From contig CAVWFA010000012.1 of assembly GCA_963754085.1 (NCBI GenBank), forward strand, positions 38,638 to 102,637: a stretch of 64,000 nt of DNA. The letters run 5' to 3'. This stretch comes from Candidatus Aminicenantes bacterium (lineage in GTDB: Bacteria > Acidobacteriota > Aminicenantia > Aminicenantales > Saccharicenantaceae). The notes beneath the pieces are model-generated. The model was not told where the DNA came from. It ran no database searches and saw only the letters and a list, made by a program, of their open reading frames with translations. The position numbers and the translations under genes were made by a program. Positions 12,752-48,839 of this stretch are shown here, piece by piece. The stretch's first letter is position 1, and each line of letters begins with the position of its first letter.

Positions 12752-13925
12752 ATGAAAAGAAGAACACTGGTCGCCGCCCTGGCGTATCGCCATGGCCGCC
12801 GCCGAGCCGGCCTGCGCCAGGAAGGCCGGGCCGCTCCCGGTCCGGTTTCGCGCGGCTACACGATCCCGCTCATCGACTTGGCCGCCGATGCGTCGCGCCG
12901 GACCGTCGTCGACCGCGAGCCCGGGCAGTACCTGGGGCATCCGACGACCGTTCTGCTCGAGGACGGCCGGACGATGTCGCCGTCTATCCCCAGGGCCACG
13001 GCCGCGGCGCCGATCGTCCTGAAGCGGAGCGGCGACGGCGGCCTGACCTGGAGCGGGCGCCTGCCCGTGCCGGAGAACTGGGCCACCTCGCTCGAGACGC
13101 CGACCATCCACCGCGTCGTCGGGCCGGACGGGACGAAGCGGCTCATCGTCTGGTCGGGGCTCTACCCGGCCCGCCTGGCGGTCTCCGAGCGACGACGCGG
13201 CGACATGGACGCCGCTCGCGCCGGCCGGGGACTGGGGCGGCATCGTGGTCATGTCGGCGCTCGTCGAGCTGCAGGCCGTTCGGCCGCGGCCGCTACATGG
13301 CCATGTTCCACGACGACGGCCGCTTTTTCGCCAAAGAGGCCCGCGCAGGAGAAGCCGCCGCGTCTTCACCCTCTATGCGACGTTCTCCGAGGACGGGGGC
13401 CTGACCTGGTCCTTCCCGCGGGCGGTCCACGCGGCGTCCGAGGTCCATCTCTGCGAGCCGGGGATCGTCCGCTCGCCCGACGGCCGGACGCTGGCCGCGC
13501 TCCTGCGCGAGAACAGCCGGACCCGCAACTCGTTACGTCATCTTCTCGAAAGACGAGGGCCAGACCTGGACTGCGCCGCGCGAGCTGCCGGGCTCGCTCA
13601 CCGGGGACCGCCACACCGGCGAAGTACGCTCCGGACGGACGGCTCTTCATCTCCTTCCGCGACATGACCCACGACAGCCCGACGCACGGCGATTGGGTGG
13701 CCTGGGTCGGCACGTTCGACGACATCGTCAAGGGCCGCGAGGGCCAGTACCGCGTCCGGCTCATGGACAACACCAAGGACGCCGATTGCGCCTATCCCGG
13801 CGTGGAGGTCCTGCCGGACGGCACGTTCGTCGCTGACGACCTACGGTCACTGGACGTCCGGCGAACCGCCCTACATCGTCAGCGTGCGGCTCAAGCTCGA
13901 CGAGCTCGACCGCCTCGCCCGCTGA
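12752..13925 (+). pseudogene. BNR/exo-alpha-sialidase-like gene disrupted by at least 8 separate 1-bp indels.
   Basis: Recognisable sialidase-like segments (SGDGGLTWS, SDDAATWTPLAPAGDWGGIVVMSALVELQ, GRYMAMFHDDGRFFAKE, TLYATFSEDGGLTWS, RNSYVIFSKDEGQTWTAPREL, KYAPDGRLFISFRDMTHD, TTYGHWTSGEPPYIVSVRLKLDEL) appear alternately in all three forward frames. Confidence 0.6.
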
Positions 13926-13991
13926 TTCCGGGGGGCGCCGGAATTGGACGGCCGGTCCCGTTCCGTTTACAATGGAGACGAAGGTCCCGTG

Positions 13992-15484
13992 ATGAGACCC
14001 GAACGCCTTCCTCTTCCCCTTCTCGTGAGCATGGCCGTCGCCGCGGGCGCGCTGTTCGTCGGCGTTTCGCGGGCCCAGGAATTCGCGACAGGCGACGCTC
14101 GTCGAGCGGGCCGTCTGTCTGAAGGACCCCGGACAGAGCTACGCGCCTCTATCTGCCGTCTTCGTTCGACCCGGCGAGGACGTGGCCCGTCCTTTTCCTC
14201 TTCGATTCGGGCGCGCGCGGATCGTTGGCGGTCGCGGCGTTCAGGGAGGCGGCCGAGACCTACGGGTGGATCCTCATCGGCTCCAACAATTCGCACAACG
14301 GTCCCCAGCGGGACAACGCCCTGGCCGCCCAGGCCGTCTGGGCGGACGCTCTGACGCGGCTGCCGATCGACGCCCGGCGCGTCTACGCCTCCGGCTTTTC
14401 CGGCGGGGCCCGCGCCGCGTCGGCCTTTCCGCAATACGTCGGCCGCGCCATCGCGGGAGTCGTCGGCTGCGGCGCCGGGATCGCCACGGGCCTCGATCCC
14501 GGGAGCCTGGACGCGGCGGCCTATTTCGGCCTGGCGGGATTGGCGGACTTCAACTACGGCGAAATGAAGGGCCTCGACCGGGCCCTCGATCCCTCCGGCC
14601 TCCCGCACGCGTTTTACTATTTCGAAGGAACGCACGATTGGCCGGACCCGTCTTCGTGCGCCCGGGCCGCCGGCTGGATGGAAGTCATGGCCATGCAGCA
14701 GGGGCTTCGTCCGACGGACCCCGCGCTGGCCGCAATCGTGATCGAGCGCGAGCTCGAGGAAGCCCGGACGCTCGAGGACGCGGGCCGGATCTATTGGGCC
14801 GGCGAACGGCTCGAGGCCGCGGCGCTCCTGGCCCGGGGACTGGACCTCGACCTGGCGGGCCTGCAGGACCTGCCTTCGCGCGTCGCGAAGCTGAAAGCCC
14901 GGACGGAATACCGGCAATTCCTCGACGCCGAAAAGGCCAGGGACCGGAAGGAGGCGGAATTCCGGACGAGTTTCGGCCGGGCCTTCGGCGCTGTCGAAGA
15001 CCCGGATACGGGCGGCTCGTCAGCCGTGCCGAAGGTGCTTCAGGAGATGCGGATCGGGTTCTTCAAAAAGGACGCGAAAACCGCCAAGACGGTCGAAGAG
15101 CGGAGCCTGGCGTCACGGCTCCTCTTCGAGTTCAGCCTGGCCGCTCAGGCCCGGGCCGTCGCCCTCTATGACCGGCGCGATTTCGGCCGGTCCGCGGCCT
15201 ATGGGGACCTCGCGATCGCCGCATGCGAGGAGGGGCTACCCCGGGAAAAGGGTCTTTATTACAGCAGGGCGAGCGTCGCCGCGGTTTCGGGCGACAGGAA
15301 AACGGCGCTGAAATGCCTGTCCACCGCCGTGGACAAGGGCTTCGTCGATCTCGGGCTCCTCGAAAGGGACGGCGATTTCGATCCGATCAGGGACACGGCA
15401 GGGTTCCGTGAGATCCTGGAACGGGTCAGGCAGGCCCGGGAGAAAAAGGGGGACATGATACCCGTTTCCCAATTCATTAAATAG
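13992..15484 (+). CDS. Secreted alpha/beta-hydrolase (esterase/depolymerase-like) with a C-terminal TPR-like region. Two frameshifts lie near 14095 and 14150.
   Basis: A signal peptide (MRPERLPLPLLVSMAVAAGALFVGVSRAQEF) is followed by ATLVERAVCLKDPGQSYA in the +1 frame, then LYLPSSFDPARTWPVLFLFDSGARGSLAVAAF...GFSGGARAA (nucleophile elbow) in a third frame. Confidence 0.55.
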
Positions 15485-22285: not shown

Positions 22286-22440
22286 GCGTGTCTCCTCAAA
22301 CCGGAATGGGACCGCGCCGGGGACTGTCGGACCCGCCCCCTGACGCCCGGGAAAGTGCTTATTTTACACAAGTCGGGCCAAAAATCAACCCCGGTTTTAT
22401 GCTATAATACCGCTTCTGTCCCCGGGGGACGGATGAACCC

Positions 22441-24369
22441 ATGAGCGAATACGGATTCCTCTTCAAGCCGTTCGCCGAGATGACCGAGGCGGACTACGCC
22501 GAGGTCGGCTTCCGCTCCGGCCTGGAGATCCATCAGCAGCTCCTGACCGAGAAAAAGCTCTTCTGCCGCTGCCCGGCCGGCCGTTACAGCGACAAGTACG
22601 ATGCCGAGATCCTCCGCCACATGCGGCCGACCCTGTCCGAGCTGGGCGAGTACGACGGCACGGCCCTCATGGAGTTCAAGACCAGGAAGGAGATCATCTA
22701 CCGGATCAACCGGGAGACGGTCTGCACCTACGAGATGGACGACACGCCGCCGTTCATGATCGACGAGCACGCCCTCGACATCGCCCTCGGCGTGGCCATG
22801 CTCTACAGCCTCGCCCTTGTCGACGAGCTCCACATCGCCCGCAAGCAGTACCTCGACGGCAGCATCCCGACCGGCTTCCAGCGGACGACCATCGTCGGCG
22901 TCACCGGCTGGGTCCCGTACAAAGATCGCCGCATCTCCATCGTCCAGCTCGGCCTCGAGGAGGACGCCTGCCGCGAGGTCAGCGACGTCGGGCACCGCCG
23001 CGTCTACCGGACCGACCGCCTGGGCATGCCCCTCATCGAGACCGTGACCGGCCCCGATATGCGCATGCCCCGGGAGGTCGCCGAGGTCGCCCAGATCCTC
23101 CGGCGCCTGGTGCGGAGCACCGGGCAGGTCCGGACCGGGATGGGCGCCGCCCGCGAGGACGTCAACGTCAGCGTCCGCGGCGGCACCCGCGTCGAGATCA
23201 AGGGCGTGCCCCGCATCCCCCGCATCCCGCTCCTGACCTATCACGAGGCCATGCGCCAGTGGAACCTGCTGCGCCTGCGCGAGGAGCTCCGCGGCCGCGG
23301 CATCACTCCGGAGACCTTCAAGTCCGAATCCGAGGACGTCACCCGGATCCTCGTCAAGACGAGCTACGAGCCCATCCGCGACGCGATCGGCGCCGGCGCG
23401 GTCGCCGCGGCCGTCGCGCTGCGCGGCTTCCGCGATCTCCTGGGCTGGCAGACGCAGACCAACACCCGCTTCTCCCGCGAGATCTCCGACCGCGTCCGGG
23501 TCGTCGCCTGCCTGACCAAGCTCCCCAACATCATCCACTCCGACAGTCTCTCGGAGACCCTCTCGAGCTCCCGCTGGGATTCCGTGCGCAAGGCCGTCCG
23601 GGCCGCCGCGGACGACACCGTGGTCGTCGTCTGGGGGCCGGCCGAGGATGTCAGGACGGCCGTCCAGGAGATCGCGATCCGGGCCAGGGAAGCCACGGTC
23701 GGCATCCCGTCCGAGACGCGCCAGGCCCTGCGCGACGGCACGAACGGCTTCGAGCGCATCCTGCCCGGGCCGGACCGGATGTACCCCGACACCGACCTGC
23801 CGCCCAAGCAGGTCACCGAGGAGCGCCTGGCGGCCATCCGCCGGCGCCTGCCCGTTCCGGTCTGGACGCGCGAAGCCTGGTACCGCGAGCTCGGCCTGCC
23901 CGCGGACGTCGTCGAGGTCCTCTCAGTCTCCCGGCTGGCCGGCCTCTTCGAGATCCTGGTCAAGGACTGGCGGATCGATCCCGTGGCCGCGGCCGTGGCC
24001 CTCGTCCAATTCCCCAAGCGGCTGAAAAGAAAGGGGCTCGACCCGGCCGTGCTCACCGAGGAGACCCTCCGCCGCATCTTCGCCCTGTTCCGCGACCGGA
24101 GGATCTCCCGCGACGGCGTGTGGGCCCTGATGGACCGGGCCGCCCGGGGCGGGCCTCTGCCCGAGGCGGGCGAGGTCCGGCCGGCGACCGAAGAGGAGAT
24201 CTACGCCCAGGTCGTCGAGTCGAACGGCCGGCTCCGGACGATGAAGGTCCACAACGCCGACAGGAAGACCCATGTCCTGATGGGCCTGGTCATGACCGCC
24301 CTGCGCGGCCGCGTCGAAGGCGGGGCCATCGTCGAGCGCGTCCGGGCGGCCGCCGAAGGGACATGCTGA
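22441..24369 (+). CDS. gatE: Glutamyl-tRNA(Gln) amidotransferase subunit E (archaeal-type GatE).
   Basis: GLEIHQQL...KLFCRCP and the AspRS-like insertion are characteristic of GatE rather than GatB. The protein is 642 aa. Confidence 0.75.
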   Translation: MSEYGFLFKPFAEMTEADYAEVGFRSGLEIHQQLLTEKKLFCRCPAGRYSDKYDAEILRHMRPTLSELGEYDGTALMEFKTRKEIIYRINRETVCTYEMDDTPPFMIDEHALDIALGVAMLYSLALVDELHIARKQYLDGSIPTGFQRTTIVGVTGWVPYKDRRISIVQLGLEEDACREVSDVGHRRVYRTDRLGMPLIETVTGPDMRMPREVAEVAQILRRLVRSTGQVRTGMGAAREDVNVSVRGGTRVEIKGVPRIPRIPLLTYHEAMRQWNLLRLREELRGRGITPETFKSESEDVTRILVKTSYEPIRDAIGAGAVAAAVALRGFRDLLGWQTQTNTRFSREISDRVRVVACLTKLPNIIHSDSLSETLSSSRWDSVRKAVRAAADDTVVVVWGPAEDVRTAVQEIAIRAREATVGIPSETRQALRDGTNGFERILPGPDRMYPDTDLPPKQVTEERLAAIRRRLPVPVWTREAWYRELGLPADVVEVLSVSRLAGLFEILVKDWRIDPVAAAVALVQFPKRLKRKGLDPAVLTEETLRRIFALFRDRRISRDGVWALMDRAARGGPLPEAGEVRPATEEEIYAQVVESNGRLRTMKVHNADRKTHVLMGLVMTALRGRVEGGAIVERVRAAAEGTC

Positions 24370-25826
24370 TGGCCGGGAACGACGACTACAAAGGCTACCG
24401 GGGCGAGGCCCTCGAGACGCTCAAGAATTTCGGGGCCCTGGTCTGGAGCGACGTCGAGATCCGGACCTCCCGCGGCACCTACACCGGCATCATCCTGCCG
24501 CGCTCCGAGACGGCCGACCCCCACCACATCGTCGTCAAGCTCCGCTCGGGCTACAACATCGGTTTGGCGTCCCGGTCGATCGAGGCCGTCGCCATCAGCG
24601 GCCGCAAGGAAGCCCACTACAAGATCCCCGAGAAGGAGTTCCCCTTCGATCCGGCCAAGCCCAAGGTCAAGCTCCTGGGCACGGGCGGGACGATCGCCAG
24701 CCGCCTCGATTACCGGACCGGGGCCGTCATCCCGGCCTTTTCGCCGGGAGAGCTGTACGGGTCCGTGCCGGAGCTGGCCGACATCTGCAACCTCGAGACC
24801 GAGAAGCTCTTCGGCGTCTTCAGCGAGAACATGGGCCCCGAACAATATATCGCCACGGCCCAGGCCATCGGCCGGGAGATCGAAAAGGGGGTCCAGGGGA
24901 TCGTCATCGGCCACGGCACGGACACCATGCACCACACCGCGGCCATCCTGTCGTTCATGGTCCAGGATTCGCCGGTGCCCATCGTCATGGTCGGGTCCCA
25001 GCGCTCCTCGGACCGGCCGTCCTCCGACGCCGCGCTCAACCTCATGCACAGCGTCAAGACGGCGGCCGAAAGCGACATCGCCGAGGTCATGGTCTGCATG
25101 TTCGGGCCGACCTCGGACACCTACGGCCTCCTCCACCGGGGGACGCGGGTCCGGAAGATGCACTCGAGCTACCGGTCGACCTTCCGGACGATCGGCGACA
25201 TCCCCATCGCCATGGTCAGCCGGGACCGGATCACGCCTCTCCGGCAGGATTACAAGCGCCGCCGGCCGGACCGGTCGGTCAAGATCGACACGGCTTTCGA
25301 GGAGCGCGTGTCCATCGTCTATTACTACCCGAATATGAAGCCGGACATCGTCGACTCGCTCATCGACAACGGCTACCGCGGCATCGTCATCGCCGGGACG
25401 GGACTGGGCCACGTCAACAAACCTCTCTATCCCGCGCTGAAGCGGGCCCGGGACAAGGGCATCGCCGTTTTCATGACCGTCCAGACGCTCTGGGGCTACG
25501 TCCAGATGTACGTCTATGATACGGGGCGCGACATGATGGAGCTCGGCGTCATCCCGGCCGCGAACATGCTGCCCGAGGTGGCCTACGTCAAGCTGGCCTG
25601 GGCGCTCGGAAAGACCGCCGATCTCGAGGAGGTCCGTCGGATCATGCTGACGCCGATCGCCGGCGAGACCACGGAACGGGAGCCGTCCAACGGCTACCTC
25701 ATCTTCCAGGGCGGCATTCCCGAGGTCGAGGAGTTCATCTCGACCATCAAGAAGTGGGACATCCCTCCTCAGAACTCGAAGCGCAGCCCCAGCCGCATGA
25801 CCCGCGGGTTGAGGATCTCGTTGTAG
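24366..25826 (+). CDS. gatD: Glutamyl-tRNA(Gln) amidotransferase subunit D (GatD, asparaginase-like). The C-terminal approx. 20 aa may be artefactual read-through into the convergent gene.
   Basis: Asparaginase motifs LLGTGGTIAS and GIVIGHGTDTM are present. Its start overlaps the gatE stop (ATGCTGA), indicating translational coupling. Confidence 0.75.
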   Translation: MMAGNDDYKGYRGEALETLKNFGALVWSDVEIRTSRGTYTGIILPRSETADPHHIVVKLRSGYNIGLASRSIEAVAISGRKEAHYKIPEKEFPFDPAKPKVKLLGTGGTIASRLDYRTGAVIPAFSPGELYGSVPELADICNLETEKLFGVFSENMGPEQYIATAQAIGREIEKGVQGIVIGHGTDTMHHTAAILSFMVQDSPVPIVMVGSQRSSDRPSSDAALNLMHSVKTAAESDIAEVMVCMFGPTSDTYGLLHRGTRVRKMHSSYRSTFRTIGDIPIAMVSRDRITPLRQDYKRRRPDRSVKIDTAFEERVSIVYYYPNMKPDIVDSLIDNGYRGIVIAGTGLGHVNKPLYPALKRARDKGIAVFMTVQTLWGYVQMYVYDTGRDMMELGVIPAANMLPEVAYVKLAWALGKTADLEEVRRIMLTPIAGETTEREPSNGYLIFQGGIPEVEEFISTIKKWDIPPQNSKRSPSRMTRGLRISL

Positions 25827-28800
25827 AGCCGGTTGGAGGGGTTGGCCGACGACTCTTCCGTGTCCACGTAATAGACGCCGTAGTAGGCGTCGTAGGCCCT
25901 GTTGACGACCGCCGAATTCAGGACGTTGAAGACGTCGATCATCGCGTACAGGCGGCCGCTGCCCACGTTGAACTTCTTCTCGAGCCGGAGCGACAGGTTG
26001 CTGAAGACGGGGAGGCTGTCTTTCGTCGCCGTCTGCAGGTAGACCGTGTTCGACCCGTACAGGCCGGGCCACAATTCGCTGTCGGCGTAGGCCAGCGTGA
26101 CGTAGTTCGGGATCTTCCAGCCCTCCCGGGCGACCAGCGTGGCCGAGGCGTCGAAGCCCCAAGGCAGCTGGTAGAGGGCGCTGATCTTGGTCATCCACCG
26201 CGCGTACATCTGGGCCGGGATCTTGCCGCCGGACGAGCCGCCCCAGTTGCCGTAGGACTTGCCGTCGATGGCCCACACGTTCGTCGGGTCGAGATAGGAA
26301 TCGCCCCAGTGGACGCGCTGGTCCTGGAGCGTCACCGAGGCGTTCAGGAACCAGCGGTTGGCGAGGCGCTTGGTCACGGCCAGGTCGAGGCCGAGATAGG
26401 TCCGGGAGGCCGAGCTCTTGTCGACCAGCCGGTAGGGTGTGTCTCCCGGGAAGGCCGCGGACGGCAGGTACCAGGTCCGGCCGGCGGCCGCGCCCATGGC
26501 GACGGTCTCCTCGCCGATCTCGACGGTGTCCGGGATGGTCCCGGCCTCGACGTACCAGGGGCCGGTGGTGTTGTCGATGACCAGGTCCGGCGTCGACGGA
26601 TAGATGTCGGCCGGGTAGAAGTACTTGGCCCAGTCGAAGTTGTCGTAACGCCGATAGGTCGCGGCGATGGACGCGGCCAGGTCGGGCCGCAGCTCCTTCT
26701 CGAGGCTGAGCATGATCTCGCGCGTCCGGGGCGAGGTCTTGACGTTCTTGGCGTTGGGATCGATATCGCTGCGGAAGAACGTCGTCTGGCTGTCGTAGTT
26801 GACGGTCGAGCTGTGGGTGAAGTCGTAGTCGCTGTAGTTCCCGGCGAGATAGGCGTCGCCTTCGAAGCCGCCCGCGAGCGCGGCCGAGGTTTCGGCGGTG
26901 AGGGCGCTGTTCTCGTCGAGCAGGGCGTAGAGCTGGTTCGGCGTTTCGGGGTGGACCGCGGAATACTGCCAGAACATCTCCAAGACATCGACCCTCTTGT
27001 CGGCGTCCAGGTCCTTCCACCAGAAGGCCATGCTGCCGGTCACGCCCAGCGGCCGGGGGGTGTTGGCGCCGGCGGCCAGGACGTCCCCGTACTGGGCCAG
27101 GGAGAGCTTGAGCATGGTCCGGCCGTCGCCCTTGAGGTCCCAGCTGATGCCGATGCGGGGCGACCAGGTGCTCCATTCGTAGCGGGGGTCGATCGGATCG
27201 ACGGTGAGGGCCGGGATGTAGTTGGCCAGGGCCGTCATCGCATCGTTCGTATAGACGTTCGACCAGCTCGAGACGACCGTGGAGATGCCGACGGCGTCGG
27301 TCGAGGGCTGCTGGTAGTCGTAGCGGAGGCCGAGCTGGAACGTGAACCGGTCCTTGGAGAACGTGTCCTGGATGAAGGCGGAGGTCCGCTTGGCCAGGTT
27401 GGCCTGCCAGTTCGACCGGGTGACGACGAACCGCTGCCATTCCGGCGGCGGGACGACCAGGCCCTCGCCGAGATCGATGAGCGGGTCGGTGAAGTTCCGG
27501 GTGATCTCGTAGTTCTGGGGCATCCCGGAAATGCTTCGGGCTTCCCTGTCCGAGAACAGGAGCCCGCCCTTGATCTCGTGGGCCAGGCCGAGGAAGGCGT
27601 CCTTGTAGAGGGTGCCCGTGAGCTCGATGTCCCGGCCGGACCGGAGGATCTCGCTGGCGTCCCAGGACCGTCCGAACGAGGCCGAGAAGGGGACATACGT
27701 GCCCTCGGCGACGTCGGTGACGACCGGGTACGCCATGGCCTCGTCGATCATGGGCTTGGTCACGGCCCCCGTGTTCGTCGAAGTCAGCTTGACCGAGAGA
27801 TAGAAGGAGTTGCCGAAGACCTGCTCGTCCTGGAATTTGAAGATCGGGCTGCCCAGGTCGTAGCGGCCCCGGCGGTGGTCGCCCTCCGGCTTGGCGAAGC
27901 TGGCGTTGGCGCCGTACTTTTCGTTCTGGCTGGTCGTGGACAGGATCTCGATCCGGTTCCCGCGGATGGGTTGGGCGTTGAGCTTGAAGGTGAAGTTGTT
28001 GAAGAGGGTCCGGTCCGGCTGGTCGTAGATGGTGTAATTGAACAGGTCCTGGACGCCGTAAGCGCCCCAGAACCAGACCCTGTTCTTGATGATGGGGCCG
28101 CCGAAGCCGGCGCCGAAGTCGCTGATCCGCTCGATCCGGTTCGTGTTGGTGACGCCTTGGGACCGCAGCTCCGCGGTCATGTTGGAGGCCTGGAAGGCGC
28201 TGTCGGTCAGGTAGAACCGGGCCGTCGCCGAGAGCTTGTTGCCGCCGCGGCGGGTGACCATGTTCATGGACAGGCCGCCCGTCGGCTGGGTCACGTCGGC
28301 GGCGCCGCCCGTCGTGACCGAGATCGTCTCGATCGCGTCGAAATCGAAATTGACGTCGGACATGCCGAGAACGTAGGGATCGGTGACGTCGATGCCGTCG
28401 ACCGACCAGGTGTTCTGGGCGCCGTTGGTGTTATCGCCCCTGGCCACGAGCCCGGACTGCTGGGCCGACTCGTTGCCGCCGACGTTCTCGCGGTCGATCA
28501 TGACCGCGGGGACGAGCTGGGCGATGACCCAGGGGTCCCGGGCCGTCGGCAGGCTCTGGAGCTCCGTCCAGCCGAGCTCCGCGCCCGTCGTGAATTTCTT
28601 CCCGTCGACCGGCGCGGAGGGGCCGGCCGCGGTCACCTCTTCCCCCGGCTTGCCGGGCTCGAGGACGAAGTCGACCGTGACGTGACCGCCGACCGCGATC
28701 GCCAGGCCGGACCGGACGGCCGCCTTGTACTCGTCCAGCTCCGCCCTGACGACGTAATCCGGGCCCGGGAAGACCGCGGGGAAGCGGAACACGCCGGACG

Positions 28801-28981
28801 AGGCTGTGACGGCCTTCAGATCGGCGGCTTGCGGGCAGGACAGGGTGACCTTGACGCGGGCCAGGGGTTTGCCCTGTTTGTCCACGATCCGGCCCTGCAC
28901 CTGGCCGGTCCGGAGCTGTGCCGACAGGGACAGGGATAGGGCGAGCAGGAGAAGGGGGGCGATGAGCACAGCTTTTTTCAA
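25769..28981 (-). CDS. TonB-dependent receptor with an N-terminal carboxypeptidase-regulatory-like domain.
   Basis: 1070 aa with a signal peptide, a CarbopepD_reg-like N-terminus and a C-terminal ...RLGLRFEF. This is a typical Acidobacterial TBDR architecture. Confidence 0.8.
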   Translation of the reverse strand: MKKAVLIAPLLLLALSLSLSAQLRTGQVQGRIVDKQGKPLARVKVTLSCPQAADLKAVTASSGVFRFPAVFPGPDYVVRAELDEYKAAVRSGLAIAVGGHVTVDFVLEPGKPGEEVTAAGPSAPVDGKKFTTGAELGWTELQSLPTARDPWVIAQLVPAVMIDRENVGGNESAQQSGLVARGDNTNGAQNTWSVDGIDVTDPYVLGMSDVNFDFDAIETISVTTGGAADVTQPTGGLSMNMVTRRGGNKLSATARFYLTDSAFQASNMTAELRSQGVTNTNRIERISDFGAGFGGPIIKNRVWFWGAYGVQDLFNYTIYDQPDRTLFNNFTFKLNAQPIRGNRIEILSTTSQNEKYGANASFAKPEGDHRRGRYDLGSPIFKFQDEQVFGNSFYLSVKLTSTNTGAVTKPMIDEAMAYPVVTDVAEGTYVPFSASFGRSWDASEILRSGRDIELTGTLYKDAFLGLAHEIKGGLLFSDREARSISGMPQNYEITRNFTDPLIDLGEGLVVPPPEWQRFVVTRSNWQANLAKRTSAFIQDTFSKDRFTFQLGLRYDYQQPSTDAVGISTVVSSWSNVYTNDAMTALANYIPALTVDPIDPRYEWSTWSPRIGISWDLKGDGRTMLKLSLAQYGDVLAAGANTPRPLGVTGSMAFWWKDLDADKRVDVLEMFWQYSAVHPETPNQLYALLDENSALTAETSAALAGGFEGDAYLAGNYSDYDFTHSSTVNYDSQTTFFRSDIDPNAKNVKTSPRTREIMLSLEKELRPDLAASIAATYRRYDNFDWAKYFYPADIYPSTPDLVIDNTTGPWYVEAGTIPDTVEIGEETVAMGAAAGRTWYLPSAAFPGDTPYRLVDKSSASRTYLGLDLAVTKRLANRWFLNASVTLQDQRVHWGDSYLDPTNVWAIDGKSYGNWGGSSGGKIPAQMYARWMTKISALYQLPWGFDASATLVAREGWKIPNYVTLAYADSELWPGLYGSNTVYLQTATKDSLPVFSNLSLRLEKKFNVGSGRLYAMIDVFNVLNSAVVNRAYDAYYGVYYVDTEESSANPSNRLYNEILNPRVMRLGLRFEF

Positions 28982-34060: not shown

Positions 34061-34124
34061 GTGGAGCCCGGCCGCATTGAAAACCCATCCCCGTTCGGCT
34101 ATAGTAAGGGCGCTTCCTCAGAAT

Positions 34125-34199
34125 GCCCCTGTAGCTCAGTATGGATAGAGCAGCAGATTCCTAATCTGTTTGTCGCCTGTTCGAGTCAGGCCAGGGGCA
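34125..34199 (+). tRNA. tRNA-Arg (anticodon CCT).
   Basis: A hand-folded cloverleaf: 7-bp acceptor stem GCCCCTG/CAGGGGC, D-arm GCTC/GAGC, anticodon stem GCAGA/TCTGT with loop TTCCTAA, T-arm GCCTG-TTCGAGT-CAGGC and discriminator A. Confidence 0.8.
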
Positions 34200-34311
34200 T
34201 TTCCTTTATCCCCCCCAAGGCCGCCGCCCTCCGGAACAGCCCCCGCATGGTGGAACCTATCGACATCGCTGTTCGTCCTTCAAGATGGAAGTCCTTACCA
34301 AGGAGGTCCTC

Positions 34312-38220: not shown

Positions 38221-39543
38221 CTACTTCTTCTCGACCTTTTTCTCGACGGCCTGCTTTTCCACACCCGGGGACGCGTTGCGGACGAACTCGGCTTTCTTGA
38301 GGTAGTCGTCGGCCTCGGCCTTGAGCTGGGCCAGCTTCTTCTCGAGATCGGCCTTCTTCGCCGCATCGGTCTCCTTCGACATCGCGAACTCGACCTTCTT
38401 CATCTGCAGCATGCGCTCCTTCGCGCCGATCTCCAGGGACAAGACCTTTTGGCTCTTTAGCTCGGCCTGGATCTTCTCCCGCTCGGCGGCATCGGTCGTC
38501 TCGTCGAGCCGCGCCTTGAGCTTGGCCATCTCCTCCGCGTTCTGCTGCTTCATCTGCTCGAGCTTGAGCATCTTGTCCTGGAAAGCCTTGGCCATCTCCT
38601 CCTCGGACTGCTTCGCGGGCGCTCCGCCGACTTTCGCCGCGCCCTCCTGCCCGCTCTGCACCGACGCGCCCGGGGCCGCTTTGACGATCGTCCTGGACTC
38701 GGCGAAGGCCAGAACGAGGGCCAGCGCCAAGGGCAGCGCGAGCAGCGGTTTCCACCGGGCCAATCCTCTTGTTTCCTGTCGGGATAGCATGACGATTCTC
38801 CTTTTGATTTGGGATGTCCGGAAGCTGCTCGCCAATTCGAGCAGCTGTCCGCCCACATGCTGCTCGACGATGAGCAGCTGATACCGGGCCAGACCGCAGC
38901 CCTGCGCGATGACGGCGCGGTCGGCCAGGTATTCGTGGGTTTCGCGCAGCGAACTTTTGTACGGCCATACAAAAGGATTGAACCATTGGATGACGGTCAA
39001 CAATTCCGAAAAGATGATATCGAACGAATGGAGCTGCCGGACGTGGGCCAGCTCGTGGGTCAGGACCCGGTCCATGTCCGCCTCGGGGATGTGCGACTTG
39101 TTGAGAAAGACGAATTTGAAGAACGAGAAGGACTCGCCGGGGTGGCCGCAGAGGACGACCTTCAAGCCATGGTGGCGGACGCAGCCGCAGCGGCCGACCA
39201 GGAGCGCCAGACGCCCCAGGCGGACGAGGAAGAGGAGGAGGAACAGTCCGGCGCCGGCGAGATAGGCGACAGACAGGATGTCGGGAAGGCCGATGCTTTG
39301 GGCCGGCGCTGCGGCGGCCGCCGTGTCCACAGAGACCGGCAGGGCCCGGGAATAGACCACGGTCCTGACGAAAGGCGACGGGACCCGGAGCAAGGGCAGG
39401 CCCAGCGAGAGGACGGCCCCCCCCAGGAGGAACGCGCGGTTGAGGGCGAAGAACGTCTCCCGCCTCAGGACGAGCCAGTAGAAGGCGTAGAAAAGGGCGA
39501 GGTACGCGCCGGAACGGATGAGATAGGCGGCGGGGTCAGCCAT
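38221..39543 (-). CDS. blaR1: BlaR1/MecR1-family M56 peptidase sensor-transducer.
   Basis: The zinc-peptidase motif HELAHVRQLH is embedded in a TM region, and the extracellular C-terminal domain is coiled-coil-rich. The start overlaps blaI. Confidence 0.7.
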   Translation of the reverse strand: MADPAAYLIRSGAYLALFYAFYWLVLRRETFFALNRAFLLGGAVLSLGLPLLRVPSPFVRTVVYSRALPVSVDTAAAAAPAQSIGLPDILSVAYLAGAGLFLLLFLVRLGRLALLVGRCGCVRHHGLKVVLCGHPGESFSFFKFVFLNKSHIPEADMDRVLTHELAHVRQLHSFDIIFSELLTVIQWFNPFVWPYKSSLRETHEYLADRAVIAQGCGLARYQLLIVEQHVGGQLLELASSFRTSQIKRRIVMLSRQETRGLARWKPLLALPLALALVLAFAESRTIVKAAPGASVQSGQEGAAKVGGAPAKQSEEEMAKAFQDKMLKLEQMKQQNAEEMAKLKARLDETTDAAEREKIQAELKSQKVLSLEIGAKERMLQMKKVEFAMSKETDAAKKADLEKKLAQLKAEADDYLKKAEFVRNASPGVEKQAVEKKVEKK

Positions 39544-39922
39544 GTGTTTCCGCTTTCTGCTTCTTGATCTCTTCGCGGAGGGCGGTCAGGATCTCCTCGA
39601 GCTCGGCCAGGGTCAGGGTCCTGTCCTTGGCGAAGAAAGACACCAGCTCCTGGTAGGAGTCGCCGAAATAGTCCTTGACGAAGTTTTTGAGGAAGGCCTG
39701 AGTGTAGTCCTCCTTGGCGACGATCGGCCGGTAAAGGTGGGTCTTGCCGAACGCCTCGTGGTCGACGAAGCCCTTCTTCTCCAGGATCCGGACGACGGTC
39801 GAGACCGTGTTGTACGCGGGCTTGGGCGAGGGCAGGCGCTCGATGATGTCCTTGACGTAGGCCTTTTCGAGGGCCCACAGGACGTGCATGATCTGCTCTT
39901 CGGCTCGGGTGAGTTCTTTCAT
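39536..39922 (-). CDS. blaI: BlaI/MecI/CopY-family transcriptional repressor.
   Basis: A 128-aa winged-helix protein (HVLWALEKAYVKDIIERL...NTVSTVVRILEKKGFV). Confidence 0.8.
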   Translation of the reverse strand: MKELTRAEEQIMHVLWALEKAYVKDIIERLPSPKPAYNTVSTVVRILEKKGFVDHEAFGKTHLYRPIVAKEDYTQAFLKNFVKDYFGDSYQELVSFFAKDRTLTLAELEEILTALREEIKKQKAETHG

Positions 39923-42915: not shown

Positions 42916-43806
42916 CTACTTCCCGTTCTTTTCGAGGCTCCGGAAGACGAGCTCCAGCCATTGGGCCGGCTTCAGGAAGCCCTTGGCCCAGGCCTCCAGG
43001 TCCGGAGGCAGGCCCGCGGCCTTGATCTCGTCGAGAGTCTTGCCCGCCTTCATCTGTTTCCGGACGAGGTCGGCCGAAGAGACGAGCATGCCGCGGAAGG
43101 CCTTGAGCTCGGCCACGCCGGCGAGCGGGCCGTGGCCGGGGATGATCTTCGCGTCCGCCGGCAGGCCGGCCAGGATCGTGTCCAGGTCGCGGACCCAGTT
43201 GTCGATGTCGCCGCCGTTAGCCACGTCGAGGAAGGGGAACATGCCGTTGAAGAACATGTCGCCCATGTGGACGACCTTCAGCCCGTCGATGAAGACGACC
43301 GTGTCCCCGCCCGTGTGGGCGCGGGGAAAATGGACCAGCCGGACGACCTGGCCGCCCGCATACAGCGTCAGTTTGTCGGAAAAGGTGATCACGGGGAGGG
43401 CCGCCGCCGGAAGGGCCTTGGTCGTGCCGCCCATGAGGGACTGGTCCTTCTCGACGAGCGCCCGGACGTTCTCGTGAGAGATGATGACCGCGGCGGGCCC
43501 GAACGCCTTGTTCCCGTCCGTGTGGTCGGAGTGCCAGTGGGTGTTGACCAGGAAACGGACGCGGTCGCCGCCGGGAAGGGCCTTGACGGCGTCCCGGATC
43601 CCGGCCGCCACGCGCTCGAACATGGCGTCGATCATGACCAGCCCGGCCTCATCGGCCACGATGCCGATATTGCCGCCTCCGCCTTGGACCATATAGACCG
43701 GCCCGGCGACCGGGATGAGCTCGATCTTCGGCGGGGCCTGCTGGGCTTGGGCGAAAAGGGCCAGGCAGGGGACCAGGATCAGGATGTCGAGGACTTTTTT
43801 TCTCAT
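42916..43806 (-). CDS. MBL-fold metallo-hydrolase with a signal peptide (B3 beta-lactamase-like or a related family).
   Basis: The HWHSDH metal-binding motif, a later H and DH ligands are present in a secreted protein. Confidence 0.65.
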   Translation of the reverse strand: MRKKVLDILILVPCLALFAQAQQAPPKIELIPVAGPVYMVQGGGGNIGIVADEAGLVMIDAMFERVAAGIRDAVKALPGGDRVRFLVNTHWHSDHTDGNKAFGPAAVIISHENVRALVEKDQSLMGGTTKALPAAALPVITFSDKLTLYAGGQVVRLVHFPRAHTGGDTVVFIDGLKVVHMGDMFFNGMFPFLDVANGGDIDNWVRDLDTILAGLPADAKIIPGHGPLAGVAELKAFRGMLVSSADLVRKQMKAGKTLDEIKAAGLPPDLEAWAKGFLKPAQWLELVFRSLEKNGK

Positions 43807-43853
43807 TTCGAACTCTCCTTCAGATCAAGAGGGATAGTCCCTATCGGGAGTCC

Positions 43854-44717
43854 CTATCGGGCGCCGATCACGTCTTTGAGACCCTCGAGATTGGCCGCGG
43901 CGATCTGCTCGCCCTTCAAGGCGATCCGTCCCGGTTCGGAAAAGCTCAGCAGCCCCAGGTCGACGGGGATCCTCAGGACGAAATCGGCGTGGCGCGTCCG
44001 TTCCTCGAACGACGCCGCGGTGGCCACCTCGACCGTCCTCTGGATGATCTGGAACGTGCTCTTGAGCTTTTCCCGGGGCAGTCTTTTCAACGGACGGTGG
44101 ACGTCGACGAGGACGGCGACCTCGGCTCCCGCCGCCCGGGCCGCCTCGACGGGGGCGTTGTTGAGGACGCCGCCGTCGAGAAGGAGCATTCCGCCCATCC
44201 GGACGGGTTCGAAGACGAGGGGCACCGACATGGTCGCCCTGAGGGCCCGGCTGAGCCGGCCCCGGGTGAACAGCACCTCCCGCCCGGAAACGAGATCGAC
44301 GGCGTTGCAGACGAACTTCACCGGCAGGTCCTCGATGCGGACCGGGCCGACGCACTTCTTCAGAAAAGCCTCGATCGAGTCGCCCTTGTCCCCGCTGATC
44401 TTGTTGATGAACCTGTTCTTATAGTCGGCGAGCAGAAGGTCCTCGAACAGGTTCCGCGGCCGCTTTTTGAGGAGGCCGGGGCGGGCCGCCTTTCCGGCGG
44501 GAACGCCCAAGCCCATGCCGTCGAAGAGCATCTCGGTCAGCTGTGTCCCGGACATGCCGGCCGCATAGAGCCCGCCGACCAGCGCCCCCATGGACGTGCC
44601 GGCGACGACGTCCGGGACGAGCCCGTGCTTCTCGAGGACCCGGATGACGCCCACGTGGGCCAGCCCGCGGGCGCCGCCGCCCATGAGGACCAGGGCCCAT
44701 TTCTTTGAGGATGTCAT
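43854..44717 (-). CDS. Patatin-like phospholipase.
   Basis: The motifs GGGARG and GTSMGA (the catalytic Ser in GxSxG) are present. Confidence 0.75.
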   Translation of the reverse strand: MTSSKKWALVLMGGGARGLAHVGVIRVLEKHGLVPDVVAGTSMGALVGGLYAAGMSGTQLTEMLFDGMGLGVPAGKAARPGLLKKRPRNLFEDLLLADYKNRFINKISGDKGDSIEAFLKKCVGPVRIEDLPVKFVCNAVDLVSGREVLFTRGRLSRALRATMSVPLVFEPVRMGGMLLLDGGVLNNAPVEAARAAGAEVAVLVDVHRPLKRLPREKLKSTFQIIQRTVEVATAASFEERTRHADFVLRIPVDLGLLSFSEPGRIALKGEQIAAANLEGLKDVIGAR

Positions 44718-44880
44718 CGAATGCGCCCCAAGGATAACACTGCAACGGAGGCCCGTCAACGGAGGTTCCCGGGGGTGGGAAATCACCGCCCGAATCACCT
44801 CCCGGGGGGATTCCCCCGCGTCTCGCTCCGCCGGAGAATGGGGAACGAAGAGCGGACAACGCACGCCCCAGGAGCCGGAC

Positions 44881-45243
44881 ATGTACGAGAGACGCAAGAG
44901 ACACCGGTTCATCGAACGGAACGACGTCCTCATCCGGACCGCCGTCGACCGGTACCAGGGCGCGGGCATCGCCGCCCATACCTTCGATCTGTCCACCGGC
45001 GGGGCGAGGATCGTCACGTCAAAGAGCTACACCATCGGAACGGCCATCCGGATCCGACTCTGCCTCAACGGGACCGACCATCCGGTCAACCTCGACGGGG
45101 TCGTCCGGTGGGTCAAAGAAAGGGACGGCGAGGACCTCTACGAGATCGGCGTGGAGTTCGAGCGCCTGACGTCCCAGGCCGTCCTGACGCTGATCCGGCA
45201 TCTCTACGGCCGGCAGGAAGGCATCCCCTCGACCGTCGCCTAG
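44881..45243 (+). CDS. PilZ-domain protein.
   Basis: The RxxxR motif (RHRFIERNDV) and DLSTGGARI are present. Confidence 0.55.
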   Translation: MYERRKRHRFIERNDVLIRTAVDRYQGAGIAAHTFDLSTGGARIVTSKSYTIGTAIRIRLCLNGTDHPVNLDGVVRWVKERDGEDLYEIGVEFERLTSQAVLTLIRHLYGRQEGIPSTVA

Positions 45244-46365
45244 CTAGTTCCCGCCTTTTAAGAAGAACCCGGCCACCTTGAGGGCCATGTCCGTGGCCTC
45301 GGCGTCGGACCGGTTGGCCAGGACGATGACCGTGAGGCCGTCGGCCGTGAAGCGGTGGATGGCCGTCCGGAATCCCGCCGTTTCCCCGTAGTGCCACATC
45401 CGCGGATGCCCCTCCCAGCCGTTGAGGAACCAGCCGAATCCGTAGTCGGCCGGCTCGCCGTCGGGTCCGCTCGGACCCTTGCCCGGCACGCGCACCGGGG
45501 TCAGGGCCGGCTTCATGTCCGCCTCGCCGAGCAGGCGGTGGCTGCGGAGCGCTTCGTCCCACAGAGAGAGATCGTAGAGCGAGGAATAGACTCCGCCGTC
45601 CCCGAGGGTCGCCGAGGTCGGGCTCTGGTCGGTGAAGCGCCAGCGGCCGCCCTCCTTCGTGTAGCCGAACGCGCGGTCGGGGACGGCGGTCCGGCCGCGG
45701 ACGAAGGCCACGGTGTTGGACATCCTCAGAGGCTCGAAGATCCGCTCGCGCAGGAACGTGGGAAAGGACCGGCCCGAGACCTTGGCGACGATGAGGCCGA
45801 GCAGGACGTAGCCGGAGTTGCTGTAGCGCCAGAGCGCCCCGGGCTTGAACCACCCGGCCGGCTGGCCTTTCAGGAGCTCGAGGACCCCGGCGTCGTCGAT
45901 CTGCGTCTCCTCGACCGGCCCGGCCGGACCGGCGGCCGGCATGAGGCCCTCGTAATCGGGCAGGCCCGAGGTGTGATCGAGGAGGTGGCGCACGCGGATG
46001 CCGCGGCCGTATTCCGGGAAGTCCGGGAAGAGATCGGTCAGGCTGTCCTCGTAGCGGAGCTTGCCGTCGCGCACCAGGAGCATCACGGCCATGGCGGTGA
46101 ACTGTTTCGTGACCGAGGCCAGGCGGAACGACGTCCGGCCGTCGATCGGCCGCATCCCCTGGAGCTCCGCGACGCCGCGCGTGCCGAGGTAGACGACCTT
46201 TCCGTCCCGCAGCACCAGGATGCCTGCGCCGGGCTCGCGTTCCGAGCCGAGGCCCGCGAGGATCGCGTCGGCGAGCTGGTGGGGCTTGTCGGCGGCCCCG
46301 GCCGGGCGGCCGGCGGAAGCGAACGGCAGGGCCAGGACGAGGAGAAAGAGCGCGGCGATCTTCAT
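45244..46365 (-). CDS. Secreted serine hydrolase of the beta-lactamase (class C/PBP4-like) family.
   Basis: A signal peptide is followed by the SxxK motif (SVTKQF) and YSN. Confidence 0.7.
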   Translation of the reverse strand: MKIAALFLLVLALPFASAGRPAGAADKPHQLADAILAGLGSEREPGAGILVLRDGKVVYLGTRGVAELQGMRPIDGRTSFRLASVTKQFTAMAVMLLVRDGKLRYEDSLTDLFPDFPEYGRGIRVRHLLDHTSGLPDYEGLMPAAGPAGPVEETQIDDAGVLELLKGQPAGWFKPGALWRYSNSGYVLLGLIVAKVSGRSFPTFLRERIFEPLRMSNTVAFVRGRTAVPDRAFGYTKEGGRWRFTDQSPTSATLGDGGVYSSLYDLSLWDEALRSHRLLGEADMKPALTPVRVPGKGPSGPDGEPADYGFGWFLNGWEGHPRMWHYGETAGFRTAIHRFTADGLTVIVLANRSDAEATDMALKVAGFFLKGGN

Positions 46366-46444
46366 GGCGGGTCCCCCGGCGGAATTCCTCTCGAGCGCAT
46401 CGTAGACCATGGGCCCGGGGAATTCAAGGGCCGGGCGGAGGTGG

Positions 46445-48839
46445 TCAGTCGAACTTGAACTGCTTGTCGCGGAACAGGCGCAGGCAGGCGTCGACGACCT
46501 CACGGTCGTAGAGGATGCCCCGCTTCAGCGAGATCTCTTCGAGGGCGGCCCCGACGCCCAGGGCCGGGCGGTAGGGACGGTGGGAGGACATGGCTTCGAC
46601 GACGTCCGCGACGCACAGGATCCGGGCCTCGAGGAGGATGTCCTTGCCGGCCAGGCCCTGAGGGTAGCCGGAGCCGTTGACGAGCTCGTGGTGTTCGTGG
46701 ACGATCCTGGCGATGGGCCAGGGGAAGTCGATCTTGCTCAGGATGGTAAAGCCGGCCTGGGAGTGCATCTTGATCAGGGCGTACTCGAGGTCCGTCAGCT
46801 TGGTCGGCTTGCTCAGGATCTCGGCGGGCACATAGAGCTTGCCGATGTCGTGGATGACCCCGGCGATCTCGATGGCCTCCACGCTTTCCTCGGGGAGGCC
46901 CATCTCGCAGGCGATGGCCCGGGCCAGGCGGGTGGTGCGCTCCTGGTGGCCGGCCGTGTAGGGGTCCCGCATCTCGATGGCCGATGACAGCGAATCGATC
47001 GAGGCCTTCAGGGTCGACCGCAGCTTGGTCAGGCCTTCCCGGAGGTCCGTCTCGGCCCGCTTGCGCTCGGTGATGTTCCGGCAAAGATAGACGATGCTGT
47101 AGGGGGCCCCCCCCGCGTCGCGGAGGATGGCGCCGTCGATCTCGAACGGGATCCGGCCCCCGGACTTGAAGACCAGGCCGATCTCCTGGGGCCCGATCTT
47201 CTTGTCGAACATGAGCCGCGAGGCGAAGACGGCCTTCTCCCGGTCCTCGGGAGCGACGAAATCGAAGACGTTCAGGCCGGACAGGCCCTCCGGGCCGGCG
47301 TCCCCGTACATCCGGTTGGCGACTTCGTTGGCGAACAGGACGTTCCCGGACAGGTCTGTCCGGATGATGAGGTCCGGGATCGAGGCGACGAGCCGGCGGT
47401 AGAGCTCCTCGCTGTCGCGCAGCGCCGTCTCCGTCCGGAAGCGCTCCGTGACGTCCTCGACGAGAGAGGCCACGCCGATGACCTTGCCCGACCCGTCGAC
47501 GAGCGAGGTGTTGTACCACTCGCAGAAGATGGCCCGGCCGTCCTTGGTGACGTTCTCATTGGTGCTCCGCTCGCCGCCCCGGTTGGCCATGAGGTCGGAC
47601 CAGGTGCGTTCCACCTGGCCCTTGAACTTCTCGGGGACGATGAACTCGGCGTGCCGCCCGACGGCCTCCGCCGCCGAGTGAGCCGAAGATGCGCTCGGCG
47701 GCGTGGTTCCATTGGAGGATGCAGAAGCTGGTGTCCCACTCGATGACCGCCAGGGGCGTCTTCTGGATGTGGAGGGAGAGCCTCTGCTCGCTCCGGCGGA
47801 GGGCTTCTTCGGCCCCGACGCGCTCGATCGAGCGGGCGACTTGGGAGGAGACGAACTCGAGCATGCGCTGTTCGACCGGGCCGTAGGCGCTCGGGTTGCC
47901 GTAGTGCTGCACGACCATGGCCCCCTTCGTCTTGCCGTCGACGATGAGCGGGACGCCGAGCCAGACCGTGGACGGGGCTCCGACGATCTCGACCTCGCCG
48001 CGGCTGCGCAGGATCCGGTCCGTCATCTCGTCGCAGAGGAGGGACCGTCCCGTCCGGATGACGTACTCCGTCAGCCCCTTGCCGGGCTTGATCGGCGGCG
48101 GGGGAGGATCGATCTCGTCGACGAAATAGGGGAAACGGATGAGGTCCTTCTCCTTGTCGTAGAGGGCGATGTAGAAGTTCGAGGCCGGCATGACGGTGCC
48201 GATGATGCCGTGGACCGACCGGAACAGGCTGTCCAGCCCGGACGACAGATCGGCGGCCTGGGCGATCTTGTAGACGGCGTTCTGGAGCAGCTCCCCCTGC
48301 TTCCGGTGATGGATGTCCTGCATCATGCCGATCATGCGCCGGAGGTCTTTGTCGTCCTCGATGAGGAAGAAGCCGCGGTCGTGGAGCCAGCGGTAGCTTC
48401 CGTTCTTGTGCCGGAACCGGTAGTCGACGTCGTAGGTCTGGCGGTCCCGTTCCGCGGCCTCGAGGAGCCGGACGGCCTCCTCCCTGTCGTCGGGATGGAT
48501 GCGCGCCGTCCACTCGTCGATGCCGCCCATCTCGTGGGGCTCGTAGCCGAGGACCTCTTCGACGCGGCCGCTCCACTTGATCTCGCCCGTCGGCAGGTCG
48601 TAATCGTAGACGACCTGGCCCGAGGCGGCGATGATGAGCTCGTACTTCTTGCGCTCGTTGATGTAGGGCGCCTTGTAGGTCCGGGCCTCGGACTTGACGA
48701 TCGGAACGGCCGGCTCGATCGCGCCGTCCCAGGCGTCGGCGGAGGGGGGGGCCGCATCGGCCAGGATCGTATAGTTCTTGCCGAAGATCCGCATCTTATC
48801 CTCGGCGGGAGTTTCGCTCAGGGGGCTCCCCCCGTCCAT
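46445..48839 (-). CDS. Multidomain signalling protein with PAS, GAF, PAS and HD-GYP regions. A 1-bp frameshift lies near 47675-47685.
   Basis: The HD-GYP motifs (HHE...GSGYP) lie in the C-terminal ORF and the PAS/GAF regions in the N-terminal ORF. The two ORFs join across ERIFG|YSAAEAVGRHAEFIVPEKFKGQ. Confidence 0.6.

Follow-up and report, generated by a model that had tools for sequence, protein, structure and literature searches.

The subject of this analysis is a pair of overlapping genes, gatE and gatD, on contig CAVWFA010000012.1 of a Candidatus Aminicenantes bacterium (assembly GCA_963754085.1). They lie in a stretch of 64,000 nucleotides, here called the window, to which all positions refer unless another contig is named. 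On the plus strand, gatE (22441..24369) encodes 642 amino acids, assigned as subunit E of the Glu-tRNA(Gln) amidotransferase (the kinase/amidase that also binds the tRNA), and gatD (24363..25826) encodes 487 amino acids, assigned as subunit D (the glutaminase/asparaginase). The start of gatD and the stop of gatE share the sequence ATGCTGA, which an initial annotation of the same DNA had pointed out and which is found on the plus strand at 24363..24369, an arrangement that suggests translational coupling.

The plus-strand interval between gatE and the divergent gene for an H+-pyrophosphatase (H+-PPase), 22286..22440, presumably contains the gatED promoter and the ribosome binding site, and the sequence offers GGGGGA, about 10 nt 5' of the gatE ATG, as a candidate for the latter. 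No sigma70-consensus promoter was called on the plus strand upstream of gatE by a promoter and terminator scan that was uninformative, and no Rfam family of regulatory RNA or T-box was matched 5' of gatE. At the other end, the 3'-terminal ~58 nt of gatD (25769-25826) overlap the 3' end of the gene for an outer-membrane protein, which is convergent with gatD (25769..28981, minus strand). The part of GatD that is common to its bacterial relatives stops near residue 464, and the tail beyond about this residue is kept only among the closest of them.

Family membership and domain organization

Membership was judged by the curated cut-offs of the NCBIfam equivalog models and by the gathering scores of Pfam. 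GatE obtains 527.5 bits with equivalog NF003107 (cut-off 456) and 455.9 bits with TIGR00134 (cut-off 319.55), and all GatB models stay far under their cut-offs for this protein, as exemplified by the 112.8 bits of TIGR00133, where 314.8 bits are required. GatD obtains 518 bits with equivalog NF003217 (cut-off 310) and 515.6 bits with TIGR02153 (cut-off 324). Both proteins can furthermore be aligned from end to end with the subunits of crystallized archaeal enzymes, GatE with 1zq1_C (350 bits) and 2d6f_C (324 bits), and GatD with 1zq1_A (417 bits) and 2d6f_A (406 bits). By every sequence criterion tested, the two proteins belong to the families GatE and GatD, and the names that they had been given from their signatures are borne out by equivalog scores, domain content and structure alignments alike. 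That the proteins come from a GatB-like or asparaginase family that is widespread in bacteria, which had been considered as an alternative, is ruled out, since the GatE and GatD equivalog models were passed and the GatB models failed.

The domains recognized by Pfam in GatE are GatB_N and GatB_Yqey, and the match to positions 4-275 of the GatB_N profile is stretched across residues 27-462 of the protein. From this it follows that GatE has an insertion of about 160 residues. An insertion domain resembling that of aspartyl-tRNA synthetase (AspRS), or GAD domain, is placed by PF02938 and by the alignment with archaeal GatE at residues 312-407 (23374..23661, plus strand). When the insertion is scanned alone, the match to PF02938 spans the whole profile but is weak, with E = 3.2e-4 and a score of 21.3 bits, just below the cut-off of 23.4; the insertion is at the same time collinear with that in the archaeal structures 1zq1_C and 2d6f_C, and the AspRS-like domain proposed in the initial annotation is in this way upheld. 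Residues 502-635 (23944..24345, plus strand) form the YqeY-like C-terminal tail domain (PF02637 GatB_Yqey, 29.2 bits, cut-off 27), which in archaeal GatDE is the sensor of the tRNA D-loop. In GatD, Pfam finds GatD_N (PF18195), Asparaginase (PF00710) and Asparaginase_C (PF17763) in succession, the N-terminal domain at residues 30-73 (24450..24581, plus strand) with 48.5 bits (cut-off 25.7).

The Mg2+ ligands of the kinase site in GatE of M. thermautotrophicus are His15, Glu157 and Glu184 (PMC2330236). By alignment, they correspond in the window protein to H31 in the motif GLEIHQQL (residues 27-34, 22519..22542), to E173 in LEEDACR (22954..22974) and to E200 in MPLIE (23026..23040), all on the plus strand like KLFCRCP, which occupies residues 39-45. 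The Thr-Lys-Asp triad described for GatD (PMC2330236) is matched by three motifs of the plus strand: TGGTIAS (residues 107-113, 24681..24701) with the asparaginase-type nucleophilic Thr, HGTDTM (residues 184-189, 24912..24929) with the Thr-Asp of the triad, and RVRKMH (25146..25163) with its conserved Lys. All three are common to the window GatD and both crystallized GatD proteins, TGGTIAS being identical in the latter two, and each of the four motifs quoted earlier from the two proteins (GLEIHQQL, KLFCRCP, TGGTIAS and HGTDTM) is present.

Lineage, distribution and phylogeny

Pfam annotation of about 30 open reading frames of the window gives bacterial neighbours: SecA, a TRAP transporter, a penicillin amidase, a GH123 protein, RecO, RodZ and FtsX. 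The gene divergent from gatE encodes the H+-PPase, and FtsE is recognized by TIGR02673 with 272.6 bits (cut-off 264.85). The bacterial character of the flanking genes, as initially described, thus stands, with the reservation that the product of the gene convergent with gatD, an outer-membrane beta-barrel protein with the domains OMP_b-brl_4 and CarboxypepD_reg, is only approximately described by the label of TonB-dependent receptor that it had received.

The GC content is flat over the region. At third codon positions (GC3) it is 0.95 in gatE and 0.93 in gatD, similar to the neighbouring genes, and the distance in codon usage to the rest of the window is 0.068 for gatE and 0.049 for gatD, compared with 0.036-0.131 for the neighbours. 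The gene order GH123-HAAS-H+PPase-gatE-gatD-OM barrel-recO-rodZ-ftsX-DUF6677, where OM denotes outer membrane, recurs in Aminicenantes metagenome-assembled genomes (MAGs) from different studies, on no fewer than 13 independent contigs, the longest of 2.1 Mb. The sole RNA gene that ARAGORN and Rfam detect in the window, a tRNA-Arg(CCT) at 34124-34200, also keeps its place about 11.6 kb downstream of gatE in Aminicenantes contigs and is therefore a useful marker of synteny. Within Aminicenantes, GatE is 84-89% and GatD 91-94% identical to the window proteins, in parallel with the neighbouring housekeeping genes, and the ratio of nonsynonymous to synonymous substitution rates (dN/dS), calculated against five Aminicenantes orthologues, is 0.18-0.29 for gatE and 0.09-0.11 for gatD. 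Both genes are under purifying selection, and the pair is native, vertically inherited and selected within this Aminicenantes lineage.

A scan of a species-representative genome collection returned 590 relatives, and what follows on genome matches concerns the best 80 of these. All 80 have bacterial labels, and megabase contigs as well as complete genomes, namely CP054675.1 (Ca. Tepidiaquacella proteinivora) and OY820579.1, are among them. The labels are Aminicenantes/Acidobacteriota, many Ignavibacteria, Melioribacteraceae, Bacteroidota and one Rhodothermaceae MAG. The close homologues of GatE, at 76-91% identity, form at least 120 clusters at 90% identity, several of them named Candidatus Aminicenantes or Acidobacteriota. 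An exhaustive protein search among 1.84 billion cluster representatives gave 685 with E < 1e-30, which fall into two tiers: about 35 full-length proteins at 44-57% identity to the window GatE, and classic archaeal proteins at 31-40%. The names in the first tier are candidate division CSSED10-310, Deltaproteobacteria (twice), Zixibacteria, Ca. Desulfaltia, Planctomycetota, Bacteroidetes, Aminicenantes and a MAG labelled 'Clostridiales', and the label set of the clade is also given as including Desulfobacterota, Ignavibacteria/Bacteroidota and Aminicenantes/Acidobacteriota. One label in the first tier is archaeal, 'Thermoplasmata archaeon', and belongs to protein P0321 of the 5.16-Mb chromosome CP070751.1. 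For members of the clade without a label, the genomic contexts that were examined look bacterial, with GH9, a GWxTD protein and hybrid histidine kinases among the neighbours. Taken together, the sequence comparisons place the window pair in a distinct, large, old and phylum-spanning 'bacterial-type' GatDE clade.

In all of the ~68 bacterial loci where the contig reaches far enough, gatD lies directly 3' of gatE. The only exception seen to this adjacency is a deep-branching bacterial-type gatE (P0147; loci L081 and L082, GCA_028279585.1, JANQNL010000189.1), which has no gatD beside it and is followed by a gene for a large FG-GAP/Big_7 protein. In CP070751.1 (locus L089, 3717581-3739518) the arrangement is divergent, with gatD and a glutamine-synthetase-like gene, glnA, read in one direction and the gene of the bacterial-type GatE P0321 in the other, in the order gatD, glnA, gatE.

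The GC content of the host loci ranges from 31 to 66%, and their proteins are 77-94% (GatD) and 60-89% (GatE) identical to those of the window; the wide span in GC is a sign that the genes have resided for long in each lineage. Between Aminicenantes and Ignavibacteria loci, GatD is 77-89% identical and GatE merely 60-68%, and MAGs labelled Aminicenantes are found at two or more separate positions of the GatE tree. The conservation of GatD across phyla and the split placement of Aminicenantes give a hint that the operon has been exchanged between bacterial phyla, or else that bins are mislabelled. Beyond the Aminicenantes block, the genes next to gatED are unrelated metabolic genes of varied kinds and no conserved functional neighbourhood was found, so that gatED behaves as a unit of its own.

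Hundreds of these bacterial proteins are already annotated as GatD or GatE by the NCBI and JGI pipelines, so that the existence of the genes is public in databases. In the literature, GatDE is called an 'archaeal signature protein' in a review of 2008 (PMC2330236), in agreement with the hallmark status from which the initial annotation set out, and reviews up to 2022 still describe it as confined to archaea. Such a signature is defined by its occurrence in archaeal genomes only, and this one defining feature does not hold for GatDE, since the best 80 of the 590 genome matches all have bacterial labels and bacterial genes were verified on the flanks of gatED. No report of bacterial GatDE, nor of a link between GatDE and Ignavibacteria or Aminicenantes, was found in a search that left most subscription journals outside, so that a prior description is possible.

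For the phylogeny, 131 GatE sequences were aligned (the window GatE, labelled bacterial loci, cluster representatives, two PDB sequences and one GatE from Natrinema), and neighbour-joining (NJ) trees were built from Kimura distances. Four bacterial GatB sequences from annotated replicons, on a very long branch, served as outgroup. In the unrooted NJ tree (614 columns), 92.5% of the 200 bootstraps recover the bacterial-type sequences as a clan, and in 65% they are set apart, together with a small archaeal set of Asgard/TACK-like sequences, from the remaining archaea. In the GatB-rooted tree (431 columns), 75.5% of the bootstraps recover a monophyletic bacterial-type clade and 96% a subclade of Aminicenantes and Ignavibacteria, while all archaea are monophyletic with the bacteria outside in just 1.5%. 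The rooted tree places the bacterial-type clade, with weak support, within archaeal diversity near Asgard/TACK, where the nearest archaeal representatives are Heimdall-, Loki/Prometh-, Thor- and Helarchaeota, Bathyarchaeia, Verstraetearchaeota and Thermoprotei. The mean identity of GatE is 46% within the bacterial clade, against ~32% to archaea. The inter-domain transfer proposed in the initial annotation is therefore upheld in part: the GatB-rooted tree, with its 1.5%, favours an inter-domain origin, and the at least 13 syntenic contigs and the codon usage speak against an event that is recent or peculiar to one genome.

Predicted reaction and competing explanations

The mechanism can be drawn by homology from archaeal GatDE, as reviewed in PMC2330236 and PMC9499178. 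A glutamyl-tRNA synthetase (GluRS) of the non-discriminating kind would mischarge tRNA(Gln) with glutamate, and GatE would take the resulting Glu-tRNA(Gln) and phosphorylate its gamma-carboxylate with ATP and Mg2+, using H31, E173 and E200 as ligands. GatD, a glutaminase of asparaginase fold with the nucleophilic Thr of TGGTIAS, the Thr-Asp of HGTDTM and the Lys of RVRKMH, would free ammonia from Gln or Asn, and this ammonia would pass through an intramolecular tunnel to GatE, where the activated intermediate would be converted to Gln-tRNA(Gln). The holoenzyme is expected to be an alpha2-beta2 tetramer assembled on a dimer of GatD. As far as can be read from the sequences, the features needed for the chemistry of GatDE are all present and under selection, and the function is most likely the amidation that turns Glu-tRNA(Gln) into Gln-tRNA(Gln). 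The activity of the enzyme, the tRNA on which it acts and the GluRS with which it works are those predicted by analogy with the archaeal enzyme.

Consider, then, how the window pair relates to known enzymes. With archaeal GatDE, represented by 2D6F from M. thermautotrophicus in complex with tRNA(Gln) and by 1ZQ1 from Pyrococcus abyssi, it shares two subunits with the same order of domains (cradle, AspRS-like insertion and YqeY tail in GatE; N-domain and asparaginase fold in GatD), and the Mg2+ ligands and the Thr, Asp and Lys motifs are alike. It differs in its bacterial host, in its separate clade, in the overlapping gatE-gatD operon and in its cognate tRNA(Gln), which is expected to begin with the pair U1-A72 and not with the archaeal A1-U72; some bacterial carriers of GatDE also possess glutaminyl-tRNA synthetase (GlnRS). 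The amidotransferase normally expected in a bacterium is GatCAB, which carries out the same overall reaction and whose GatB is a paralogue of GatE with the same cradle domain and YqeY tail. In contrast to GatB, the window GatE has the insertion of ~160 residues, and the window glutaminase is the asparaginase-fold GatD, not the amidase-fold GatA, with no GatC; the combination of GatB-type kinase, amidase-type GatA and GatC that defines GatCAB is accordingly not what the two genes encode. With the type I L-asparaginases (AnsA family), finally, the core of GatD shares fold and catalytic motifs, so that TIGR00519 is also passed (390 bits, cut-off 260.5), but GatD has in addition the GatD_N domain, higher scores with the GatD equivalogs and gatE as its neighbour.

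The genes that would accompany either way of forming Gln-tRNA(Gln) were searched for by tblastn. None of gatA, gatB, glnS, gltX and asnS was found either in the 64 kb of the window or in the loci from Aminicenantes, and in ~1.3 Mb of related loci gatA, gatB, gltX and asnS were likewise not found, GlnRS being the only hit, at two loci (L051 and L074). The Pfam annotation of about 30 open reading frames of the window contains no aminoacyl-tRNA synthetase or amidotransferase genes besides gatED, and no tRNA(Gln) genes occur in the window or in ~90 related loci.

From all this, it is considered probable that the window contains a native gatE-gatD operon for a complete GatDE, vertically inherited in Aminicenantes, and that the bacterial-type clade goes back to one ancient transfer from archaea to bacteria, the donor being nearer to Asgard/TACK than to Euryarchaeota. 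Several observations weigh against this. The trees were built from distances (NJ, Kimura) and have a very long GatB branch, and a Heimdall cluster is recovered as the sister of the bacterial-type clade in 22%; because of these two circumstances, an ancient transfer out of an archaeon of Asgard/TACK type, with later spread through bacteria, is graded as better-supported but unproven, and we infer its direction and age. That the clade is purely bacterial is put in doubt by CP070751.1, whose TatC scores on both archaeal and general models. Archaeal GatDE reads the A1-U72 pair of archaeal tRNA(Gln), and bacterial tRNA(Gln) has U1-A72 (PMC2330236). No biochemical evidence for any bacterial GatDE was found in the searchable literature. 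A survey of 2014 (PMC3927822) lists GlnRS together with gatCAB for Ignavibacterium album, at most a candidate carrier of gatDE. Finally, a search with E. coli GlnRS revealed a bona fide glnS on the gatED contig itself in two MAGs labelled Ignavibacteria/Bacteroidota, both products with ~716 bits on TIGR00440 (cut-off 425.8) and 57-59% identity to E. coli GlnS. In L051, a 1.02-Mb contig labelled Bacteroidota, glnS (13312-14994, minus strand) adjoins gatD in convergent orientation, and in L074 (Ignavibacteriae) it is located at 64-1989 on the minus strand, ~8 kb upstream of gatE. GlnRS is absent from all archaea (PMC9499178), and from this it follows that its co-occurrence with gatED is without archaeal precedent.

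On the L051 contig, gatD is split at 12990-13015 by one extra G in a short homopolymer ('agaggccc') and reads through if one base is removed. The split is most likely an error of long-read assembly; it may also reflect decay of gatD beside glnS.

As regards origin, a chimeric assembly, which the initial annotation had named as a circumstance that would overturn it, or else an archaeal insertion of very recent date in this genome alone, has nothing in its favour except the prior expectation that GatDE is archaeal. It is rejected because of composition, codon usage, synteny and selection: GC is flat, GC3 and codon usage are as in the neighbours and match the host, the same gene order is found on the Aminicenantes contigs, and the closest homologues are bacterial, with archaeal proteins far behind; its probability is judged to be close to nil. 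Mis-binning is likewise made very unlikely by Aminicenantes contigs of 1-2 Mb such as CAVTOI010000003.1 and JAGNLW010000001.1. Vertical descent of bacterial GatDE from LUCA, the last universal common ancestor, or from the last bacterial common ancestor, with loss in most bacteria, is a more substantial proposal. Sheppard and Soll, as cited in PMC9499178, placed GatDE in LUCA, the bacterial clade is a deep, diverse and well-supported clan, and rooting with GatB is liable to long-branch artefacts. This proposal would nevertheless require the split between archaea on the one side and bacteria with the outgroup on the other that so few of the rooted bootstraps display, and it has to accommodate the grouping of the bacterial clade with Asgard/TACK-like sequences in most unrooted replicates and the patchy bacterial distribution, so that it is regarded as distinctly unlikely. 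It is also confronted by the closeness of Aminicenantes and Ignavibacteria, in GatD identity across phyla as well as in the 96% subclade, which suggests a later spread between bacteria and so agrees with the preferred reading, an ancient transfer out of archaea.

As regards function, the GatCAB of the GlnRS-bearing Thermus, Deinococcus and P. aeruginosa serves the synthesis of Asn-tRNA(Asn). In these bacteria, the amidotransferase is not needed for Gln-tRNA(Gln), since GluRS discriminates against tRNA(Gln) (PMC3927822); PMC4206432 is consistent with GatCAB serving Asn-tRNA(Asn) in bacteria that have GlnRS. With GlnRS beside gatED, it follows that the Glu-tRNA(Gln) amidotransferase may be dispensable in some carriers and that its role could differ, and GatDE in GlnRS-bearing genomes might be redundant or have another job, on Asn-tRNA(Asn) or on both substrates. 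The job of bacterial GatDE could, in other words, have changed or broadened to that of an Asp-tRNA(Asn) or dual Asp/Glu amidotransferase that replaces GatCAB. The GlnRS genes of L051 and L074, the former immediately adjacent, are in favour of this, as is the circumstance that bacterial tRNA(Gln) and tRNA(Asn) both have U1-A72, so that, reasoning from PMC2330236, a re-tuned enzyme might accept both. Since archaeal GatDE has a strict specificity for Glu-tRNA(Gln) (PMC2330236), the motifs of the catalytic pocket are unaltered and tblastn found no GlnRS in the Aminicenantes loci of the window's own lineage, such a change is considered possible but unlikely. The same tentative standing is given to its more specific form, in which the deep bacterial branch of GatDE has been re-tuned to bacterial tRNAs and acts, at least in GlnRS-bearing carriers, as a general or Asn-directed amidotransferase instead of GatCAB. 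A role outside translation, e.g., of GatD as a metabolic asparaginase or glutaminase in protein-degrading bacteria, would fit the neighbours with roles in amino-acid and peptide catabolism at several loci (a HutH-like lyase, an aspartase-like lyase and peptidases) and the glnA between gatD and gatE in L089. These catabolic neighbours are not kept between lineages, however, the partner of GatD is in every case a full-length GatE in which the tRNA-binding tail and the kinase site are preserved, and archaeal GatD has no glutaminase activity unless Glu-tRNA(Gln) is present (PMC2330236), all of which makes a role outside translation very improbable in comparison with the amidation of Glu-tRNA(Gln).

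The window operon is an ordinary member of the bacterial GatDE clade, and the type of enzyme is already well known; for the window itself the outcome is that the genes are real, native and rightly named gatE and gatD, and that the contig is not chimeric. The part that deserves to be followed up is the wider pattern, i.e., a deep bacterial GatDE clade that at times occurs beside GlnRS. GatDE serves as a textbook example of a translation enzyme specific to archaea, and it is used in arguments about how Gln-tRNA(Gln) has been synthesized since LUCA and about why archaea never gained GlnRS. With a large bacterial clade, the claim of an archaea-only distribution is out of date, and the clade amounts to a natural experiment on how GatDE copes with a U1-A72 tRNA(Gln), whether GatCAB is replaced by it or coexists with it, and why some genomes retain it beside GlnRS. 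If it were true that a re-tuned bacterial GatDE replaces GatCAB, this would be a cross-domain non-orthologous replacement of an essential translation enzyme that is unrecorded in the reviews of the field.

Other features of the window

An outer-membrane phospholipase A1 is also encoded in the window. At 38221-39922 and 42916-46503, a pair consisting of a BlaR1-like M56 peptidase and a BlaI-like repressor lies near proteins of metallo-beta-lactamase fold and of the serine beta-lactamase family, and this may be a neighbourhood for sensing of, or resistance to, beta-lactams. A multihaem cytochrome c with c7/c3-type domains is encoded at 51225-52262, and its gene adjoins several open reading frames without a Pfam match (52270-53571, 54322-55641 and 58014-59933).

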